DNA of 64,000 bases from Candidatus Aminicenantes bacterium. GTDB taxonomy: Bacteria; Acidobacteriota; Aminicenantia; Aminicenantales; Saccharicenantaceae. The position numbers were made by a program, and so were the translations under genes. The notes under the pieces were generated by a model. The model was given only the letters and a program-made list of their open reading frames with translations. It was not told the origin of the DNA and ran no database searches. Shown here piece by piece: positions 459 to 57,570 of this stretch. The stretch covers positions 140,821-204,820 of the forward strand of contig JACIYJ010000003.1 of NCBI GenBank assembly GCA_014360015.1, in the 5' to 3' direction. Positions within the stretch are counted from its first letter, which is position 1. Every line of letters begins with the position of its first letter.

Positions 459-1214
459 GTGGATGGAGTTGATGTTGAATTTGAAAAGTTAATCCAGCTC
501 CAGGAGCTGGACAATTCTATTAGGCAGCTCTCTGTCGAGCTTTCTGATATTCCTCGTCTCATTGACCAGGTCGAAAAGAAAATCAAAGCCGATTCAGACC
601 TGGTTCTTAAGGCCAAAGAGAAGCTCAGTCAAAACCAGAAAAAACGTCGGGACTTAGAAGCTGAAGTCAAGGATCTAAAAGCCCTGGTATCTAAATTTAA
701 ACGCCAGCTGAACGAAGTCAAAACCAACAAAGAATACACTTCCCTGCTAAAAGAAATTCAGGACACCCAGGCGAAAATTGATTCGCTGGAAGAAGAAATA
801 ATCAAAGAGCTGTTAGTGGCGGATGAAATCGAAGAAGAAATCCGAACCGCCACCATGAAACAAAAAAATGAGGAAGAACATCTAAAACAGGAAATTGCCG
901 CCTTAAATCAGCGGAAAAAAGAACTGGAAGAACAGAAAAGCCAGTTAGCCAAACAAAAAGAGGAGCTTATCCCGACTATTCCCAAAGCCCAACTTCAGCT
1001 TTATCTCAATATCGCCAAAAAACGTGGGGGTATTGCTCTGTCTAAGGTAGTGGATGAATTCTGTTCTATGTGCCAGCTGAGGATCAGACCTCAGATGTTG
1101 AACGAAATAAGAGACCGCTCAAAAATCCATCTCTGCGAAAGTTGCGGCCGGATTCTTTATTTTGAATCTTCCTCTCAAGAATCAGCTGAAGAAGCTGAAG
1201 ATTCTTCACGGTAA
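459..1214 (+). CDS. Coiled-coil protein with C-terminal C4 zinc ribbon (COG1579/DUF164-like)
   Basis: A GTG start at 459 opens a roughly 200-aa heptad-rich K/E/L stretch. This is followed by CSMC...(17 residues)...CESC. Confidence 0.7.
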   Translation: MDGVDVEFEKLIQLQELDNSIRQLSVELSDIPRLIDQVEKKIKADSDLVLKAKEKLSQNQKKRRDLEAEVKDLKALVSKFKRQLNEVKTNKEYTSLLKEIQDTQAKIDSLEEEIIKELLVADEIEEEIRTATMKQKNEEEHLKQEIAALNQRKKELEEQKSQLAKQKEELIPTIPKAQLQLYLNIAKKRGGIALSKVVDEFCSMCQLRIRPQMLNEIRDRSKIHLCESCGRILYFESSSQESAEEAEDSSR

Positions 1215-2980
1215 AGATTCTCGATCAACTCTCGATAGCGATTTTCCACCGCAGCCCGTCTAACTTTAAGAGTGGGAGTTATCTCGCCTTTTTCTATTTC
1301 AAAATCTCTCTCTAAAAGAGCAATTTTTTTAATCTTTTCATAAGAGGCCAAACCGGTTGTCGCCCGGTCAATCTCACTCTGAATAAAATCAACGATTTCC
1401 TGATTATTTATTAAATCTTTCCTATCGGCAAACTGAATACCTTTACTCCTGGCCAGCTCTTCCAGTTTTTCAAAGTTGGGTACGACCAGAGCGGAGATGA
1501 ATTTTCTTTTATCGCCGATGACCACCACCGTGCTGATGTATGGACTGGTTTTAAGCAGATTTTCTATCGGTTGCGGGGCGACATTTTTGCCACCAGAAGT
1601 CACAATCAGGTCTTTTTTTCTATCAGTAATTACCAGAAAGCCATCTTCATCCAGATAACCAATATCTCCGGTATGGAACCAACCGCCCTCAAAAGCTTCT
1701 CTCGTCTCTGCTTCTTTTTTGTAATAGCCCTTCATAACGTTAGGACCACGAGCCAGAATCTCACCATCAGGGGCAATTTTAATTTCGACTTCAGGGATGG
1801 GCTTGCCCACTGTCCCGAATTTTATGGCTCCTGGCCGGTTAACTGCGAGTACAGGCGAAGTTTCAGTCAACCCATATCCTTCATAGATTACCAGACCGAT
1901 AGAATAGAAAAACTCAGCAATATCTTTGGACAGGGGCGCACCACCTGAAATGAAAAACCTGACCCGACCGCCAGTTTTTTCAATGATTTTGCTGAAGACC
2001 AGTTTGTGAGCCAGGCTTCTTTTCAATTTTAAACCGAATGGAATCTTTTCTCCAGCCAGTTCCTTCTGGCTATACTTCCTTCCCACCCTTTGAGCCCAGA
2101 AAAATATTTTTCGTTTCAGGGGAGAACTGCTCAAAATGCTATCCATAACTCTGGCATAAATTTTTTCGAAGACACGCGGAACGCTGACCATGATATGAGG
2201 CCTTACTTCCAGTAGATTTTGAGCAACGGTTTCGACACTTTCGGCAAAACCGACCGTTGCCCCGGCGTAAATGTAAGCAAACATCACCATCCTCTCCAGG
2301 ACGTGAGAAAGAGGCAGGAACGACAGGACAGTATCGCGATAAGATATATCAAACATGGAAACGCAGGTTCTAACGTTACTGACAAAATTGTGATGTGTCA
2401 GAATAACCCCCTTGGGCACCCCGGTAGTACCTGAAGTATAGATTAAAGAAGCTTCATCTTCCGGATTGACTCTGGAAGTCAGCTCTTCAAATAACCCTGG
2501 CCTTTCGGCCTCCACCTGTCGCCCGATTTCTAACAACTCAGCAAAATTCAAATATCCGGGGACAGGCTCCTGTTCCAGGGTGATAAAATGTCGGACCTTT
2601 TTTAGATTCTCCCTAATAGACTGGATTTTTTCTCTCTGCTCCTTGTTCGAGACCACAACTATTGAAGCATCTGAATCCTCTATTATGTACTCAGCTTGAG
2701 GGGCAGTTAACGAAGTATAGATGGGAACGGTCAATCCGCCCTGGCAGATCACGGCAAAATCAGTCATCACCCATTCGGGCCGGTTTTCCGAGAGAATTAT
2801 TAATTTGTCCCCTTTATTAAATCCCAGTTTATTCAAAGCTAAGGCCAGATGAACAACTTTTTTCTCGAATTCAGCTGTGGAAATAGGGACGTATTGGCCC
2901 TCTTTTTTGTAGAGCATTAAATCATCTTTAATATAGCTTCTGACGGTGTTCAAAAAAAGTTGGGCTAAGGTCTCAACCAT
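1175..2980 (-). CDS. Long-chain fatty-acid--CoA ligase (AMP-forming)
   Basis: The AMP-binding signature YTSGTTGVPKGV and a GYGLTET motif are present. The length is about 600 aa. AGGAGG lies upstream of the ATG at 2980. Confidence 0.85.
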   Translation of the reverse strand: MVETLAQLFLNTVRSYIKDDLMLYKKEGQYVPISTAEFEKKVVHLALALNKLGFNKGDKLIILSENRPEWVMTDFAVICQGGLTVPIYTSLTAPQAEYIIEDSDASIVVVSNKEQREKIQSIRENLKKVRHFITLEQEPVPGYLNFAELLEIGRQVEAERPGLFEELTSRVNPEDEASLIYTSGTTGVPKGVILTHHNFVSNVRTCVSMFDISYRDTVLSFLPLSHVLERMVMFAYIYAGATVGFAESVETVAQNLLEVRPHIMVSVPRVFEKIYARVMDSILSSSPLKRKIFFWAQRVGRKYSQKELAGEKIPFGLKLKRSLAHKLVFSKIIEKTGGRVRFFISGGAPLSKDIAEFFYSIGLVIYEGYGLTETSPVLAVNRPGAIKFGTVGKPIPEVEIKIAPDGEILARGPNVMKGYYKKEAETREAFEGGWFHTGDIGYLDEDGFLVITDRKKDLIVTSGGKNVAPQPIENLLKTSPYISTVVVIGDKRKFISALVVPNFEKLEELARSKGIQFADRKDLINNQEIVDFIQSEIDRATTGLASYEKIKKIALLERDFEIEKGEITPTLKVRRAAVENRYRELIENLYREESSASSADS

Positions 2981-41009: not shown

Positions 41010-41867
41010 TTACTTTTTCTTGGTCAGACCGAATTCCTTAGACAGGCGTTCGATTTCCCGTTCAATGTCTTCAATCGACTGGACTTTGATTTTGGTCGTG
41101 GGAAAGGGGACTTCATCACCGGGTTTGACAAATTCTATCTTAAGTTCTTCTGGTTTCTTCTCTGCCTTTTTTCGGGCTGGAGTTTCCCCGGCTGTTTTAA
41201 TATCAGCTCCTGAGGCAACCATTTCTGCCGGCCGAGGACCTTCTGGTTCTGCTTTTTCCGGAGTTGGTATTTTTTCCCCAAAAATTCTGGCTCTGACCAC
41301 CGGGACTGTCAGCCGGGCTATTTCTTTGAGAGTCTCGAGCACCCCACGCCCGTTGATGGCTTCGGCTTCAATGTAAGGAGCATTGCGGTGGTTTAACAGC
41401 CGGTTGAAAGTTTCCACCGGAATCAGATTCGGCAGGTCACGTTTGTTGTATTGAAAAACCAGGGGAATCTGGTTGAGATCTATGTTTTGTTCTAAGCAGT
41501 TCCTTCGCAGACCGTCAAAGCTTTCCAGGTTAGCCTCGAGAAGAGGCAACTGAGAGTCAGCCACAAAAACTATGCCATCAGCCCCTTTGAGAACACTTTT
41601 TCTCGAAGCTTCATAAAATACCTGACCGGGGACGGTCAGCAGTTGAAAATGAACCTTAAAATCTTTAATCAATCCAGCCTTTATAGGCAAAAGATCAAAA
41701 AAGAAAGTTCTTTCGGTTTCGGTTTCCAGGCAGACCAGCTCACCGCGATAAGCTGGCTCAAGCTTGAAATAAATATACCTGAGGTTGGTGGTCTTCCCGC
41801 TCAGGCCAGGTCCATAGTAGACAATCTTGATAGCGATATTCTTAGTTACATAGTTGACATAAGCCAT
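41010..41867 (-). CDS. MglA-like Ras-superfamily small GTPase with a roughly 90-aa K/E/P-rich C-terminal extension
   Basis: AYVNYVTKNIAIKIVYYGPGLSGKTTNL...LLTVPGQVFYEASR...QYNKRDLPN aligns along the whole length of MglA (mutual gliding-motility protein A). GGGGAG lies 9 nt upstream of the ATG at 41867. The tail (from GEKIPTPEKAEPEG to GLTKKK) has no MglA counterpart. Confidence 0.8.
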   Translation of the reverse strand: MAYVNYVTKNIAIKIVYYGPGLSGKTTNLRYIYFKLEPAYRGELVCLETETERTFFFDLLPIKAGLIKDFKVHFQLLTVPGQVFYEASRKSVLKGADGIVFVADSQLPLLEANLESFDGLRRNCLEQNIDLNQIPLVFQYNKRDLPNLIPVETFNRLLNHRNAPYIEAEAINGRGVLETLKEIARLTVPVVRARIFGEKIPTPEKAEPEGPRPAEMVASGADIKTAGETPARKKAEKKPEELKIEFVKPGDEVPFPTTKIKVQSIEDIEREIERLSKEFGLTKKK

Positions 41868-41886
41868 CTGCATTATCTCCCCGCTC

Positions 41887-49535: not shown

Positions 49536-51341
49536 TCAGGTGGGTGGATGCAGGCGTTTTTTGAACCAGACCCGGAGTTTTTCCATCTTCTCACGCTGAG
49601 CCAGAGGGGCCCGACGCCGGCAGGTGCAAATTTCTTCTGATCCTTCTGGTGCTCCCCAGCGGACCTCCACACAGTCGTTGGGATTGTAAGCCATTTCAAA
49701 AGCCTCTTTTCGCTTGAGAATTTCTTTGAGGCTCAGGGTCCAGGGCCGACCGTCAGACCTGGTGTAGGTTATTGAAAGCTCTTCAGCCAGCCTGGAAGAA
49801 AGGCTTTCCAGTCTGGCTTTTATTTTTTCCGGCGACTCAGATTTCTTAATTCTGAACCGTTCAGGATGCTTCAAAACTTTTTCCGGAAACTCCTCAATGG
49901 TATCCATGGCGATTAGCAGCCTCAGGTCACGGTTGGGCGTTGAATAGTCCTCCCAGGGACCGGTTGTCAGAAAGACAGTTGAACCAGAGGGCATGGGAAT
50001 AACATAACCCGGATGCTCCTGCATAAATTTTTCGCCAATTTCAACCGACTCCACCCTGACCAGCAACTGTTCATGGAGTGCCCGATAAAGTTCCCGGAGA
50101 GCAGTTTCCGGGTCAAGGGGTTCTGGGTTTATCAGCCGTTCCATTCGCTCGTAGAATTCTTCTGGCTGCAGTTTCAACTGTTCGAGCGAAAAATTACCAT
50201 AGTCCTGGCTGTCCTGAATTTCCTGGTTGGTCATCAACCTGAGCTTACCCCCACTGTTCGTTATTGGTCTGAAAGCTTTAAAACCTGGCTGGCCGACAAC
50301 ATTCTCTGTAGCAAAAAGAAAATTACCCTTCCAGAATCTTTTTATTCCGACAGTACCATCTGGCTGAGCGTCAACTGCCAGAAGTTCACCGGCTTTGTTC
50401 TCTGTCTGGGGCACCCAGCGAACTATGATTAGGGTGTGTCCATAAGGGTCAGCATAGACTACACCCGGGCGGAGGTGATTCCTCGAAAGAGGCAAAGGAT
50501 AATAATCAGAGACTTCTGCCGCTAACCTGGTTCTGGCTGTTCCCGAATGGACGGTATCCATCAGAAGGCGCATCAACCTGGCAAATTTTTTGACCTCATC
50601 ACCCGGTCTGGTCGGCAGCTCATTGGTCAGCCAGCGACCGCAGGTTGGGGCCTGAGTCAACGAGCCGCGACTGCATTCATGGAAACCAAAAGGCAGTCTG
50701 TTTTTCCAGGCAAAATAGGCTCTAAGGAAAAAAGGATTATCCGCACAATCTGGCTCGAGACTAAGGGCCCCATTGTCTTCAGATAAGCCCAGATGATTAT
50801 GAAGGAAATTTCTCCCGGGATCACGGAGGATGGAATGTAAATTTGGCCAGGAATCGTTCTCATCAGCACCATGAAAAAGTGCCTCTATCCAGGCTGAATA
50901 AAGGTTTTCCTCAGCTCTGGTCCAGCTTTTTTCTGCTTTCCAGAAAACACCGGATTCCGGGAGCCCTGGATGAAATGGAGAAACTTCAATGGTCCGAGAG
51001 AAAACAACTTTACTGCCAAGACAAATCTCCAGCCTGTATTGACCAGAAGTTACCACCCTTCCTTGCCACCATTGCCAGAAAGGCGGCCCGCCTCCTTTCT
51101 TTACCAGGGTTAATTTCTCCGCTTTTAGTTGGAGTCCTTTGAGATTGATTTCCAGATTTTTTTCGGGAATCTCTTTTTCGGAAGAAATAATCAATCTGAA
51201 GGTCATTCCAGGTGACAAACGGGCAGGAGAAACCAGAACAGATATTTCCTCCCGGGCAGACCAACCTGGCGTAAAGTTAACAGCAAGAAGAAGCCCGAAC
51301 AGCAGCAGTCTGGTTTTAATTTTAATCACTCGGTCTCTCAC
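49536..51341 (-). CDS. Large secreted hypothetical protein (601 aa)
   Basis: A signal peptide is present. No confident domain assignment was possible. A possible Cys...His...Asp arrangement (HECSRG ... YGHTLII ... DAQPDG) is only weakly reminiscent of transglutaminase-like folds. Confidence 0.5.
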   Translation of the reverse strand: MRDRVIKIKTRLLLFGLLLAVNFTPGWSAREEISVLVSPARLSPGMTFRLIISSEKEIPEKNLEINLKGLQLKAEKLTLVKKGGGPPFWQWWQGRVVTSGQYRLEICLGSKVVFSRTIEVSPFHPGLPESGVFWKAEKSWTRAEENLYSAWIEALFHGADENDSWPNLHSILRDPGRNFLHNHLGLSEDNGALSLEPDCADNPFFLRAYFAWKNRLPFGFHECSRGSLTQAPTCGRWLTNELPTRPGDEVKKFARLMRLLMDTVHSGTARTRLAAEVSDYYPLPLSRNHLRPGVVYADPYGHTLIIVRWVPQTENKAGELLAVDAQPDGTVGIKRFWKGNFLFATENVVGQPGFKAFRPITNSGGKLRLMTNQEIQDSQDYGNFSLEQLKLQPEEFYERMERLINPEPLDPETALRELYRALHEQLLVRVESVEIGEKFMQEHPGYVIPMPSGSTVFLTTGPWEDYSTPNRDLRLLIAMDTIEEFPEKVLKHPERFRIKKSESPEKIKARLESLSSRLAEELSITYTRSDGRPWTLSLKEILKRKEAFEMAYNPNDCVEVRWGAPEGSEEICTCRRRAPLAQREKMEKLRVWFKKRLHPPT

Positions 51342-51489
51342 TTTTTCATCTTTATACTTTGACTAATTGTTATTTAAGACAGAAAGTTTGTCAAACCCCA
51401 CTCTCTGTTCAAAATCCACCGACTCAGATCAGCTGAGAAAATAAATTCAAAAAGGGTAAACCCGATTAAATCTGGCTGCGACCGCTTTA

Positions 51490-51505
51490 CCCCCCCCCCC
51501 CCCCC
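51490..51505. repeat. Homopolymeric C16 tract (G16 on the minus strand) in the divergent promoter region
   Basis: Sixteen consecutive C residues are read directly. They are flanked by TTTACC (51486-51491) and TATTAT (51506-51511), about 65 bp upstream of the sppA ATG. Confidence 0.9.
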
Positions 51506-51575
51506 TATTATCGGACAAAATCCATCTGTTTATTTTTGATGGTTCATTAAGTAAAATAAGTTAACAGGAGGACCG

Positions 51576-53288
51576 ATGAACAAGAAATTTATCTGGCTGA
51601 TAATTATTTTCTTCTTTCTCATCCTTATCGGTTTGCTCGTTTTTTCCTTACTAATCTTTAACATTGCTCCTAAGGAAGTACAGGTCGAAAGCAATTCTTA
51701 TCTGGAAATAAAACTCGAGGGCCGGCTGGAAGAGTATTCTCCGGTGGTGCCGTATATGGAATTTCTCCAGGGGAAGACAATTTCTCTTTATGACACCTGG
51801 ATGAACCTGAGGAAGGCCAGTCTTGACCCAAGAATCAAAGCTGTAGTTTTGAAGTTCGGTCTCCTCGATTCAGACTGGGCCAAAATTGAAGAGCTTCGCC
51901 AGGCTGTTTATGATTTCAGGAAATCAGGAAAGCCGGTAATCGCCTATTTTGAAGAATCGCCTGATGCTGATAAAGAATATTATCTGGCCACAGCCTGCGA
52001 CAAAATTATTCTCCACCCACTCGGCTGGCTCGGAGTAAACGGACTGGCCAGCTATGTGCCGTTTTTTAAGGGAACGCTCGATAAACTCGGGATCAAGGCG
52101 GAATTCGAGCACATTGAAGAATACAAAACCGCCTACAACCAGTTTACCGAAAAAGGTTTCACCACAGCTCACCGAGAGATGATGGAATCAATCTATAACG
52201 ACATTTTCAACTATTATTTTAAGCAGATAACCGCTGCCCGTCATAAGACCCCTGAAGAAATGAAAAAGTTGATAGACCGTGGCTATTTCCAGGGAAAAGA
52301 AGCTGTGGATTGCGGTCTGGTTGATGGGTTGGCCTATGAAGATCAGCTACTTGAAGTGATGAATCTCAAGAATATAAAACAACTCAATAAAATTTCGAAC
52401 GAGAAATACGCCAAGGTCAACCCCGCTTCCTTTGGATTAAATCGGGGCAAAAAAGTGGCTCTAATTTTCGCCACAGGGACAATTCTGAGTGGTGAAGAAC
52501 AGGTAGTAGCCCTGGGCAGTGAAACTTTTACTAGGTGGCTCCGAGCAGCGGTTAAAGATAAATCCATTGCTGCTATTGTCGTCAGGATTGACAGTCCCGG
52601 TGGTTCGGCTGTTGGTTCGGATATCATCTGGCACGAGCTGGTCAAAGCCAGGGGTGAAAAACCCGTAGTCATTTCCATGTCCGGGCTGGCCGGTTCGGGT
52701 GGCTACTGGATGGCTCTCGGTGGCCATAAAATTATCGCCCAGCCCCAGACCTTAACGGGGTCTATCGGAGTAATAGCTGGAAAATTCAGCTTCGAGGGCC
52801 TGATGAAAAAGCTCGGGATCAACACTGAAAAAATAGTTCTGGGCAAGGAAGCAGATGCTTTTTCTGTTTACCGGAAATTTACTCCAGAAGAAAGGAACAT
52901 TCTGAAAAACCAGATTCAGTCTATTTATCAACAGTTTCTGGAACGGGTAGCTTCATCCAGAAATCTCTCCATCGAAGAAGTTCACCGAATTGGTCGGGGG
53001 CGTGTCTGGACAGGAAATCAGGCTAAGGAACTGAACCTGGTTGATGACCTGGGTGGTTTGAACCTGGCTATTGAGTCGGCCAAGAAAATGGCTGGCATAC
53101 CAGCTGAAGAGGAAGTTAAGTTGGTCATCTGGCCTAAAAAACGCACCTTTTTTGATTTTTTGATGGGCAAGGAGACAGAACTTAGTTATTTCCGGGCTCA
53201 GGCTGAAATCATCACCGGCTATGCCAGGTTAATAAAATATTCCTCACCACCCAGAGTCTGGACTTTAATGCCCTTCTGGCTCTATTAA
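51576..53288 (+). CDS. sppA: Signal peptide peptidase SppA, 67K type (protease IV)
   Basis: An N-terminal TM anchor is followed by two ClpP/crotonase-like halves. The catalytic region is SMSGLAGSGGYWMALGGHKIIAQPQTLTGSIGV. GGAGG precedes the ATG. Confidence 0.85.
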   Translation: MNKKFIWLIIIFFFLILIGLLVFSLLIFNIAPKEVQVESNSYLEIKLEGRLEEYSPVVPYMEFLQGKTISLYDTWMNLRKASLDPRIKAVVLKFGLLDSDWAKIEELRQAVYDFRKSGKPVIAYFEESPDADKEYYLATACDKIILHPLGWLGVNGLASYVPFFKGTLDKLGIKAEFEHIEEYKTAYNQFTEKGFTTAHREMMESIYNDIFNYYFKQITAARHKTPEEMKKLIDRGYFQGKEAVDCGLVDGLAYEDQLLEVMNLKNIKQLNKISNEKYAKVNPASFGLNRGKKVALIFATGTILSGEEQVVALGSETFTRWLRAAVKDKSIAAIVVRIDSPGGSAVGSDIIWHELVKARGEKPVVISMSGLAGSGGYWMALGGHKIIAQPQTLTGSIGVIAGKFSFEGLMKKLGINTEKIVLGKEADAFSVYRKFTPEERNILKNQIQSIYQQFLERVASSRNLSIEEVHRIGRGRVWTGNQAKELNLVDDLGGLNLAIESAKKMAGIPAEEEVKLVIWPKKRTFFDFLMGKETELSYFRAQAEIITGYARLIKYSSPPRVWTLMPFWLY

Positions 53289-55134: not shown

Positions 55135-57570
55135 ATGCCTGAAAAAAGCAAAATCCTGGCTGGAGTCTCCCTTATTTCAGCTGAGATTCTGGCTCTGGAA
55201 CTCGTCCTGACGAGGTTTTTTTCAATTTCTCAGGGCTATCATTATGCCTTCCTGGTTGTCAGTATTGCCTTTCTTGGCTTTGGTGCTGGTTCTCTTCTTC
55301 TTTTTATCGAACGCCTGAAGAATATCCGTAACCGGGAGGACTTCATTTCCAGGCTGGCTATGTTAATAAGTCTTTCCATCCTGGTCAGTTTTTTCCTGGT
55401 AAACAGGTTTCTCTTTAATCCAGTTGAGCTTCTCTGGAATCAAAACAGGATCTGCCTTATGCCTGTTCATTTCTTAATCCTAAGCTTGCCTTTTTTTCTT
55501 GGCGGGCTGGTCATTTCTTCAACTCTAACCTTTTTTCCCACGATAGTTCATAAGATTTATTTTGCAGACCTGATTGGAGCCAGCTTAGGAATAATCCTGT
55601 CCGGCCTGAGCTTCCGGCTGGCTGGCGACCGCGGAGCCATCGGGCTGCTGGTCTTGCTGGCCATTCTATCTTCATGGTTTTTTCTGGAATGGAAAAAAGC
55701 AAACCGAGAATATAAAGTCTATCAAATTGGTGCCACTCTGGCCATTCTCCTGATTTTTATGCTTTTTCCCCACCACTTCTCCTTTAAAATTTCAGATTAT
55801 AAACCGCTCTCCTTCTATTTAAAACAGAAAGACGCAGCCATCGAAAAAACCCTCTGGGATGAGAAGACCAGGCTGGACCTTTTTCATTCTCCGGCCATTC
55901 GTTATGCTCCCGGGCTAAGCCTTAAATTCTCTGGAATAATTCCAGACCAGATGGGGCTGTCGCTGGATGCTGAAAAGATTTCAGCTCTGATAAAAACTCC
56001 AGAAGATTTAGACCGATTAGCCTTTCTCGATTATTTACCAGTTTCCAGAGCCTTCAAGCTGGCTGAAGCTGGTAGAGTATTATTGATTCAGCCTGAAAGC
56101 GACCTTGAACTCTTTCTGAGCCTTAGAAATGGAGCCAGTCTGGTCACCGTATTTGAAGAAAGTTCTTTAATCAGGCAAGTTCATCAGAATGAAATCTCCA
56201 GGCTGTCGAAGGTAATGCATAAAAATTGCCAGATTTTCCTTAAAACCGTCGAAGCCCGGGCCGGTTTACTCCAGGAGAAGAATGAATATGATTTAATCGT
56301 CTTCCCCTTTCCCGACCTTCCGGGGAGCTTCAGCACTGGCTTTTACGGTCCTGGAGAAGATTATCTCCTGACCAGAGAGGCCGCCGAAAGAATGTTCAAC
56401 CTTCTCAGCCAGAAGGGAATGATAACGGCTCTATTCTATTATCTCCCACCGTCCCGCCAGGAATTGCGCTTTATGGCTCTCTGGATTGAAACTTTGGAAA
56501 AGCTCGGACTTAATCCTGAAAACCATATCCTCATCCTCAGGTCAGTTGAAACCATCTCTTTTTTCATCAAAAAAGAGCCGTACTCAGAAGAAGAACTTCA
56601 AAACTGGCAGGATTTTGCTGCTGACCACTACTTTGACCTGATCCTTCCCCGGCCAGCTGTTGGACAAAACAGAACATCATTCATTCAGTCTGATTTGACC
56701 TTTTCCGAAGAGCTGTTATCCGGTCTTTTTGACCGCGAAAAACGCCTGGAAATCTACCGCCGGTATATTTTTGAAATAAAACCGCCAGTTGATGACCGAC
56801 CATTCTTCAGGGACTTCTTCAAATGGTCAAGATGGCAAGATACTTTGAGGTTTTTTAATAGAAAAATATACCCGTTATTCCTGGGAAAATATCTCCTGGT
56901 TTTTCTGTTTGCTCAATCGCTGCTAATCGGGATGATAATAATCATCCTGCCGTTGCTAAAAGCTACATCCACCAGGTTGAAAAATGTGCCGCAGAAAAAC
57001 CGGATTTTCTTCTACTTTGCCAGCCTGGGCTTTGGTTATATGTTGGTCGAAATCACTCTTTTCCAGAAATTCATCCTGCTGCTTGGACATCCAACTTATT
57101 CTCTGAGCGCAGTCCTGTTTTTCCTGCTTAGTTCTTCTGGAGCCGGTAGCCTGAGCCTACCGAAACTGAATCATAAGATAAAAGAATCCGGTTTGAAATT
57201 CTGGCCTCTGGTCTGCATGCTGGCCATTTTCACAGAAATAATCGCCCTTAATTTAGCCAGACCGCTTTTTCTGATCAGCAGCTTACCGGTAAGGTTTGGA
57301 TTGAGTTTCCTGTTTATCTTCCCTCTGGGCTTCTGCTTAGGTGTTCCCTTCCCGGCAGGTTTGAAATTTTTCTCTTCTCAATCGCAATTAATCATTCCAT
57401 TGGCCTTTGCCGCCAATTCTTTCTTCGGTCTTCTGGCTTCGGTCTGGGGACTACTTCAGGCCCACGCCTGTGGCTACAAATCCGTTCTTGTTCTGGCCGC
57501 TCTCAGCTATCTTTTATCTTTTCTGTTTTTCTATCTCGCCGGTCATCGGGACAAACCGGACATCGAGTAA
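55135..57570 (+). CDS. Polytopic membrane protein with duplicated TM module flanking a spermidine-synthase-like (class I MTase fold) domain
   Basis: The N-terminal (about 1-210) and C-terminal (about 590-811) hydrophobic modules share EI(L/T)L..RFF...GY..AFL....[11 protein letters not shown] / E(I)TLFQKF(I)..GH..YSL....[12 protein letters not shown]. The central region ([12 protein letters not shown]...[10 protein letters not shown]...[20 protein letters not shown]) aligns with spermidine synthase but lacks GGGDGG. Confidence 0.55.

Follow-up and report, generated by a model that had tools for sequence, protein, structure and literature searches.

We analysed a stretch of 64,000 nt from a Candidatus Aminicenantes bacterium (hereafter the window; GC content 45.9%), in which a long run of C residues lies between two divergently oriented genes. 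As the initial annotation stated, the gene on the plus strand is sppA, and the divergent one encodes a secreted protein of 601 aa, or of 597 aa from the downstream start. The local sequence is GACCGCTTTA-C16-TATTATCGG, with the Cs at 51490-51505. The hexamers pointed out in the annotation are also present, TTTACC at 51486-51491 and TATTAT at 51506-51511, and they are separated by 14 Cs. The features of the region are listed in Table 1.

Table 1. Features of the intergenic region containing the C-tract and of the flanking genes
Feature	Position	Strand	Basis or remark
Gene for a secreted-looking protein of 597 aa, divergent, no known family	49536..51329	-	601 aa (to 51341) from upstream GTG
Inferred promoter of the 597-aa gene, TTGACA (51394..51389)-N17-AACAAT (51371..51366)	51366..51394	-	conservation and consensus scan
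Fast-evolving, non-conserved spacer between the back-to-back promoters	51397..51528	.	about 130 nt; holds the tract and A-runs (about 51439-51472)
Candidate promoter TTTACC-C14-TATTAT	51486..51511	+	9/12 to consensus; spacer 14 nt; unconserved
C16 homopolymer, hypervariable tract	51490..51505	+	sequence; alleles elsewhere CTCCC, C6, C8, C9, C16
Inferred -35 box of sppA, TTTATT	51529..51534	+	footprint in 24/24 loci, alignment
Inferred -10 box of sppA, TAAAAT	51552..51557	+	footprint; ends 18 nt before ATG; predicted start about 51564
Ribosome-binding site of sppA, AGGAGG	51566..51571	+	GGAGG invariant in alignment of closest relatives
sppA, signal peptide peptidase, 570 aa	51576..53288	+	TIGR00705 357.2 bits vs cut-off 311.45; Peptidase_S49 twice

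Genes and sequence context of the tract

SppA is a housekeeping membrane protease. The product encoded here belongs to the 67K type, with a score above the NCBIfam TIGR00705 cut-off and tandem S49 stretches. Its relatives in species-representative genomes (51-74% identity) all come from MAGs of Candidatus Aminicenantes or Ca. Saccharicenans (Acidobacteriota), and the identity reaches 81% on metagenome contigs. The 597-aa protein is single-copy and strongly conserved (65-80% identity in relatives), and its gene stays paired with sppA, in divergent orientation, in at least 18 related loci.

The C16 run is uninterrupted and is past the length of about 7-9 nt for slippage. The initial annotation remarked that long G/C homopolymers are rare in a genome of 45% GC, and the survey bore this out: the tract stands alone in the window, where no other run of C or G is longer than 6 nt, and the longest G/C run across 258 kb of related loci is 8 nt. 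By chance, G/C runs of 16 nt or more are expected only 6e-6 times in 64 kb under an iid model and 8e-5 times under a first-order Markov model. Runs of 7 nt or more are depleted, since none was observed in the window apart from the tract, against 3-9 expected from composition. Runs of A/T in the window extend up to 9 nt, whereas G/C runs are avoided.

A search of a plasmid collection with the intergenic region gave no match, and JGI metagenome contigs, searched for exact copies of the left flank of the tract (ATCTGGCTGCGACCGCTTTAC), gave 0 matches. No terminator-like sites were found in the intergenic region. In an Rfam scan of 51250-51650, the best match, algC, scored 17 bits where the gathering score is 34; as only this sub-threshold match was obtained, the scanned stretch holds no known RNA element. 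The sole open reading frame over the tract, a 23-aa poly-Gly frame with a TTG start on the minus strand (51447-51518), was rejected as a small gene because the C9, C8 and C6 alleles described below differ by 7, 8 and 10 nt, which shifts the frame, and because the region is unconserved. Upstream of the tract, a perfect short inverted repeat, CTCAG-ATCAG-CTGAG (including CAGCTG), occupies 51424-51438; it is not kept in relatives.

Putative conserved promoters on both sides of the tract

The region upstream of sppA was compared among 24 loci, namely the window and 23 related loci (12 from genomes and 11 from metagenomes). A TTTATT-like hexamer followed by 16-18 nt and TA[AG]AAT was found upstream of sppA in all 24, a phylogenetic footprint. 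The end of the -10 box is exactly 18 nt from the sppA ATG in 22 of the 24 loci. A ribosome-binding site, GGAGG, comes next. From this conservation, we infer that TTTATT-N17-TAAAAT (51529-51557) is the working sppA promoter of the window. Its -35 box matches the E. coli consensus at 3 of 6 positions, and the two boxes together match at 8 of 12. The distance of 18 nt between the -10 box and the ATG in these Aminicenantes loci also predicts a 5' UTR of only about 12 nt, little more than the AGGAGG itself.

On the minus strand, the sequence TTGTCAAA (51388-51395), which supplies the TTGACA box, is invariant among the closest relatives. Judging from this conservation, TTGACA-N17-AACAAT is likely to be the promoter of the 597-aa gene. 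The spacer between the two promoters (51397-51528) is unalignable among the closest relatives and nearly absent in distant ones, and no C-run was found in the spacer of 32 related loci. The tract ends (51505) 23 nt before the inferred -35 box (51529), which places it at about -59 to -74 from the predicted start.

The initial annotation took the tract for the stretch that separates the -35 and -10 boxes of the sppA promoter. The comparison of relatives would instead place the working promoter elsewhere: the conserved pair lies downstream, at 51529-51557, in the 24-locus comparison, and the tract appears to fall outside the interval between its elements. In the alignment of the closest relatives, neither TTTACC nor TATTAT is kept. 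The assignment of the tract as the spacer of the present sppA promoter is thus not supported by the aligned sequences.

Length variation of the tract among strains

Logan assemblies of the same species were recovered from ten sequencing runs by exact-protein look-ups of SppA and four neighbour proteins. The tract site was covered in eight of the ten runs; in the case of SRR11866717 and SRR29054603, the contigs end before the site. In all covering assemblies, the flanks at the site are identical, with GCTTTA before the tract and TATTATCGGACAAAATCC after it. The ancestral-type allele CTCCC was found in SRR12999147 (97.6-98.4% identity to the window) and SRR26201534 (98.3%), C6 in ERR14373517 (99.1%), C8 in SRR29054607 (6-9 SNPs relative to the window), C9 in SRR29054604, SRR29054605 and SRR29054606 (0-6 SNPs), and C16 in SRR11866724 (locus L052, with 0 mismatches over 6315 nt). 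Locus L049 likewise has 0 mismatches to the window over 6315 nt. The contigs that are 100% identical to the window come from SRR11866714 and SRR11866724, and SRR11866724 and SRR11866717 are listed among the Shengli metagenomes (PMC9635834).

The site therefore carries five alleles in strains that are 97.6-100% identical to the window, and this is the variation in length that the annotation had predicted from slipped-strand mispairing. Locus L020 (SRR29054606) has 0 mismatches to the window over 7794 nt, yet carries C9, seven Cs fewer. As these two sequences differ in the tract and are otherwise free of mismatches, the tract mutates faster than substitutions accumulate, and repeat-length change outpaces point substitution at this site. 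The remaining indels among the strains are all single-base changes, +/-1 in G5 (19480), in T7 (17582) and in A7 (1613); one extra A inserted at 51464 in the 98.4% strain is also a single-base change.

The order of the alleles indicates that the tract was born from the interrupted CTCCC and was then lengthened stepwise toward the window strain. Such monotonic lengthening could reflect drift or directional selection. As G/C runs are otherwise avoided, the tolerance of C16 could also mean selection rather than neglect. The exact tract length in any single sample could be off by a base or so.

Reality of the tract

The annotation had offered an assembly artefact as an alternative, and a poly-G/poly-C read error or a collapsed or expanded homopolymer has to be considered, since every platform is error-prone on long G/C homopolymers. 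An error in the consensus could explain why sister samples differ as C8 and C9. Moreover, the Logan contigs of SRR11866714, which match the window without a difference over 37.5 kb, break at 51479 and restart at 51746, so that the tract is unassembled there. However, the tract lies inside contigs, where the sequence on either side is unique and identical. Seven other runs, representing four or more accession series, carry it at the same site, with lengths that follow strain divergence. An independent k-mer assembly (L052) gave exactly C16. A typical homopolymer miscall is far smaller than a difference of 7 nt. Because C16 recurs in L052 and shorter alleles occur in six other runs, we rejected an artefact as far as the existence of the tract is concerned, and we regard it as hardly credible as the source of C16.

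The gap in SRR11866714 (loci L023 and L056) amounts to about 266 nt and includes the tract and the start of sppA; the contig breaks 10 nt before the tract and restarts 240 nt after it. The break at 51479 was considered as a sign of within-sample heterogeneity and set aside. It is not specific to the tract, because the opposite break (51746) is 240 nt away. The break is compatible with trouble at the tract, though not specific to it.

Origin and possible role of the tract

The reading that we favour, with a probability of roughly 0.6, is that the tract is a genuine, recent and slippage-prone homopolymer in an unconstrained spacer, and that it either is neutral or modulates expression mildly at best. 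The setting would be an uncultured Aminicenantes lineage from oil-field samples. The tract would have originated when the interrupted CTCCC became an uninterrupted C-run, and replication slippage would have expanded the run to C6, then to C8/C9 and then to C16 within one species-level lineage. All of this would have taken place in the unconstrained spacer that separates the conserved promoters of sppA and the 597-aa gene, outside the -35/-10 interval. Since both the core promoter and the region where UP elements normally sit are downstream of it, the tract would have no effect, or a small one, on the expression of sppA or its neighbour. As the tract is upstream of about -59, a change in its length leaves the arrangement of the -35 and -10 boxes intact, and likewise the zone from -40 to -60 (51505-51525: TATTATCGGACAAAATCCATC). 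Given its position upstream of the conserved promoter rather than inside it, the tract is probably a young repeat that lengthens and shortens by slippage and plays little or no part in switching, and we infer that it is functionally neutral. The genes concerned are unlike the variable surface genes that are usual for contingency loci: sppA is a housekeeping gene, and its 597-aa neighbour, though secreted-looking, is highly conserved and departs from the usual pattern.

The main alternatives give the tract a regulatory role. TTTACC and TATTAT might form an sppA promoter, perhaps an additional one, that is OFF now and would be turned ON when slippage reaches about C18-C20. This pair matches the sigma-70 consensus at 9 of 12 positions, above the 8/12 of the conserved pair, and the tract, which is expanding in the lineage, is 2 nt short of the workable range: lengths of C17-C21 would set the hexamers 15-19 nt apart. 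The observed alleles nevertheless offer no usable spacer (0/5), as the distance between the hexamers is 3 nt in CTCCC, 4 nt in C6, 6 nt in C8, 7 nt in C9 and 14 nt in C16, and never 15-19 nt. The hexamers are also older than the tract. In the ancestral-type allele, TTTAC-TCCC-TATTAT, they are only 3 nt apart, and since they are nearly adjacent in the CTCCC strains, the pair could not have worked as a promoter before the tract expanded. Relatives keep neither hexamer, a conserved promoter is already present 23 nt downstream of the tract, and a consensus promoter scan lists nothing at TTTACC/TATTAT. When tract lengths of 5-22 were modelled and scanned at relaxed thresholds (at least 8/12, spacer 15-19), the pair turned up only at C17-C21 (spacer 15-19), and no promoter-like pair was found across the tract at C14-C16. 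We consider such a switch very unlikely; that two or more further insertions could make the tract the spacer of a new promoter is speculative. Weak 8/12 pairs at C5-C13 in the modelled scan were judged to be chance matches. The same judgement was made for TTTACC-N16-19-CAAAAT at C8-C11 and for alternative -35 hexamers for TATTAT (CTGCGA and GCGACC), both of which reached a maximum of 8/12 at relaxed thresholds.

The strongest of the alternatives is that the tract acts as a rheostat, its length setting the phase or distance of upstream A-rich UP-like elements, or of an activator site, relative to RNA polymerase, and so tuning sppA or the divergent gene. In favour of this, the tract is upstream of the inferred -35 box (-59 to -74), with A-runs directly upstream of the tract (51439-51472). 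Steps of 6, 8, 9 and 16 alter the helical phase, and a gain or loss of 1-10 bp would shift the A-runs and turn them to another face of the helix. There are also precedents. In Helicobacter pylori, experiments showed that changing the length of the sabA T-tract alters how UP-like elements are axially aligned, and with it the output of the promoter (PMC4081817), and in Bordetella, single-base changes in the fimX C-stretch correlate with an approximately 4-fold change in mRNA, as between the C7 and C8 alleles (PMC1891110). At the present locus, however, the tract does not adjoin the -35 box, and the intervening 23 nt, which are AT-rich and form the normal UP zone, stay in place when the tract changes. 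The upstream A-runs (51439-51472) lack conservation in the closest relatives, and the genes are housekeeping or strongly conserved rather than variable surface components. In addition, G/C tracts are stiff and lack the bend of A/T tracts, which counts against such tuning. On balance, a rheostat seems possible but unlikely. We think it quite unlikely that the locus is a contingency-type promoter element at its birth in a free-living, uncultured subsurface bacterium, one that already tunes the divergent pair or is two slippage steps from a switchable TTTACC-N16-18-TATTAT (C18-C20). If this were true, SSR-based stochastic gene control would extend beyond host-adapted pathogens, and the locus would show how switches originate.

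Comparison with known systems

In Neisseria, slippage in poly-G or poly-C tracts alters the output of porA, opc and fetA; there, the tract forms the -35/-10 spacer, and the genes encode outer-membrane proteins of a host-adapted pathogen. Both the spacer position and this setting are absent at the present locus.

The mechanism of the Bordetella fim promoters was proposed for the tract in the initial annotation. The Bordetella homopolymeric-tract (HPT) loci include the 'C-stretch' of fim2, fim3 and fimX (PMC1891110, citing Willems et al. 1990). As in these loci, the poly-C tract is intergenic, lies upstream of a gene and is polymorphic in length between close genomes (PMC1891110). Interrupted versions also occur in relatives, C6TC3 and C9TC8 in Bordetella parapertussis (PMC1891110) and CTCCC here, and slipped-strand mispairing is presumably the mutational mechanism in both cases. 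Unlike in Bordetella fim, the conserved -35/-10 pair is found downstream of the tract, none of the alleles seen here gives a workable spacer, and the downstream gene encodes a housekeeping protease and not a fimbrial subunit. Since the tract is outside the putative promoter elements, the analogy is limited to the mutational mechanism; the promoter-spacer architecture does not carry over.

The arrangement also resembles that of H. pylori sabA, in which a mononucleotide repeat lies upstream of the -35 box, with A-boxes farther up, and is polymorphic in length among strains (PMC4081817). One example in the same paper, hp_0350/pyrG, has its repeat within a divergent promoter region, as here (PMC4081817). 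In contrast, the sabA tract abuts the -35 box, consists of A/T and affects curvature (PMC4081817), whereas the present tract is G/C, stiff and 23 nt away. Transcriptional effects of tract length were measured for sabA (PMC4081817), whereas here they would be hypothetical.

None of the papers searched connects Aminicenantes to phase variation. Based on the features described above, the locus would be filed as a further example of a hypermutable intergenic homopolymer, outside the fim/porA and sabA families of promoter switches.

A long homopolymer together with hexamer look-alikes is thus insufficient to call a phase-variable promoter. The alleles CTCCC, C6, C8/C9 and C16 form a clean natural series in metagenome strains that are otherwise identical or nearly so, and this series records how a hypermutable G/C tract was born and rapidly expanded in a lineage that is environmental, not pathogenic, and otherwise avoids such runs. 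Should transcription depend on the tract, the locus would be a contingency locus at an early stage, away from the pathogens in which such loci are usually described. Were it without effect, it would still be a useful marker for strain typing and a reason for caution in assembly at this site.

Other observations

The 597-aa protein gave no match in searches against Pfam, NCBIfam and PDB sequences, and the exact-protein look-up of its 601-aa start variant gave none either. Its family is very large, with more than 5400 homologues at E <=1e-5, all of them named 'hypothetical'. The AF2 model of the protein (pLDDT 87.9) has an N-terminal filamin-type Ig domain; for the modelled core of about 470 residues, a fold comparison with the PDB gave no convincing match. 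In the family alignment, Cys195, His298, Asp320 and Asp324 are invariant, within the motifs EPDCADNP, ADPYGHT and VDAQPDG. As a guess from this pattern, these residues might form a Cys-His-Asp hydrolase or transglutaminase-like site.

Elsewhere in the window, the exact-protein look-up of the open reading frame at 41010-41873 gave no match. Two further strain-level events affect coding regions. In SRR29054605 and SRR29054606, a change from A7 to A6 at 1613 splits the open reading frame of a 601-aa AMP-binding enzyme (1175-2980, minus strand) into 457 and 142 aa; the strains may truly carry a frameshift here, or the homopolymer was misread in sequencing. In SRR29054605 and SRR29054607, an A-to-T change at 56125 turns codon 331 of an 811-aa hypothetical protein (55135-57570, plus strand) into a premature stop, and the open reading frame then appears as two genes of 330 and 451 aa.
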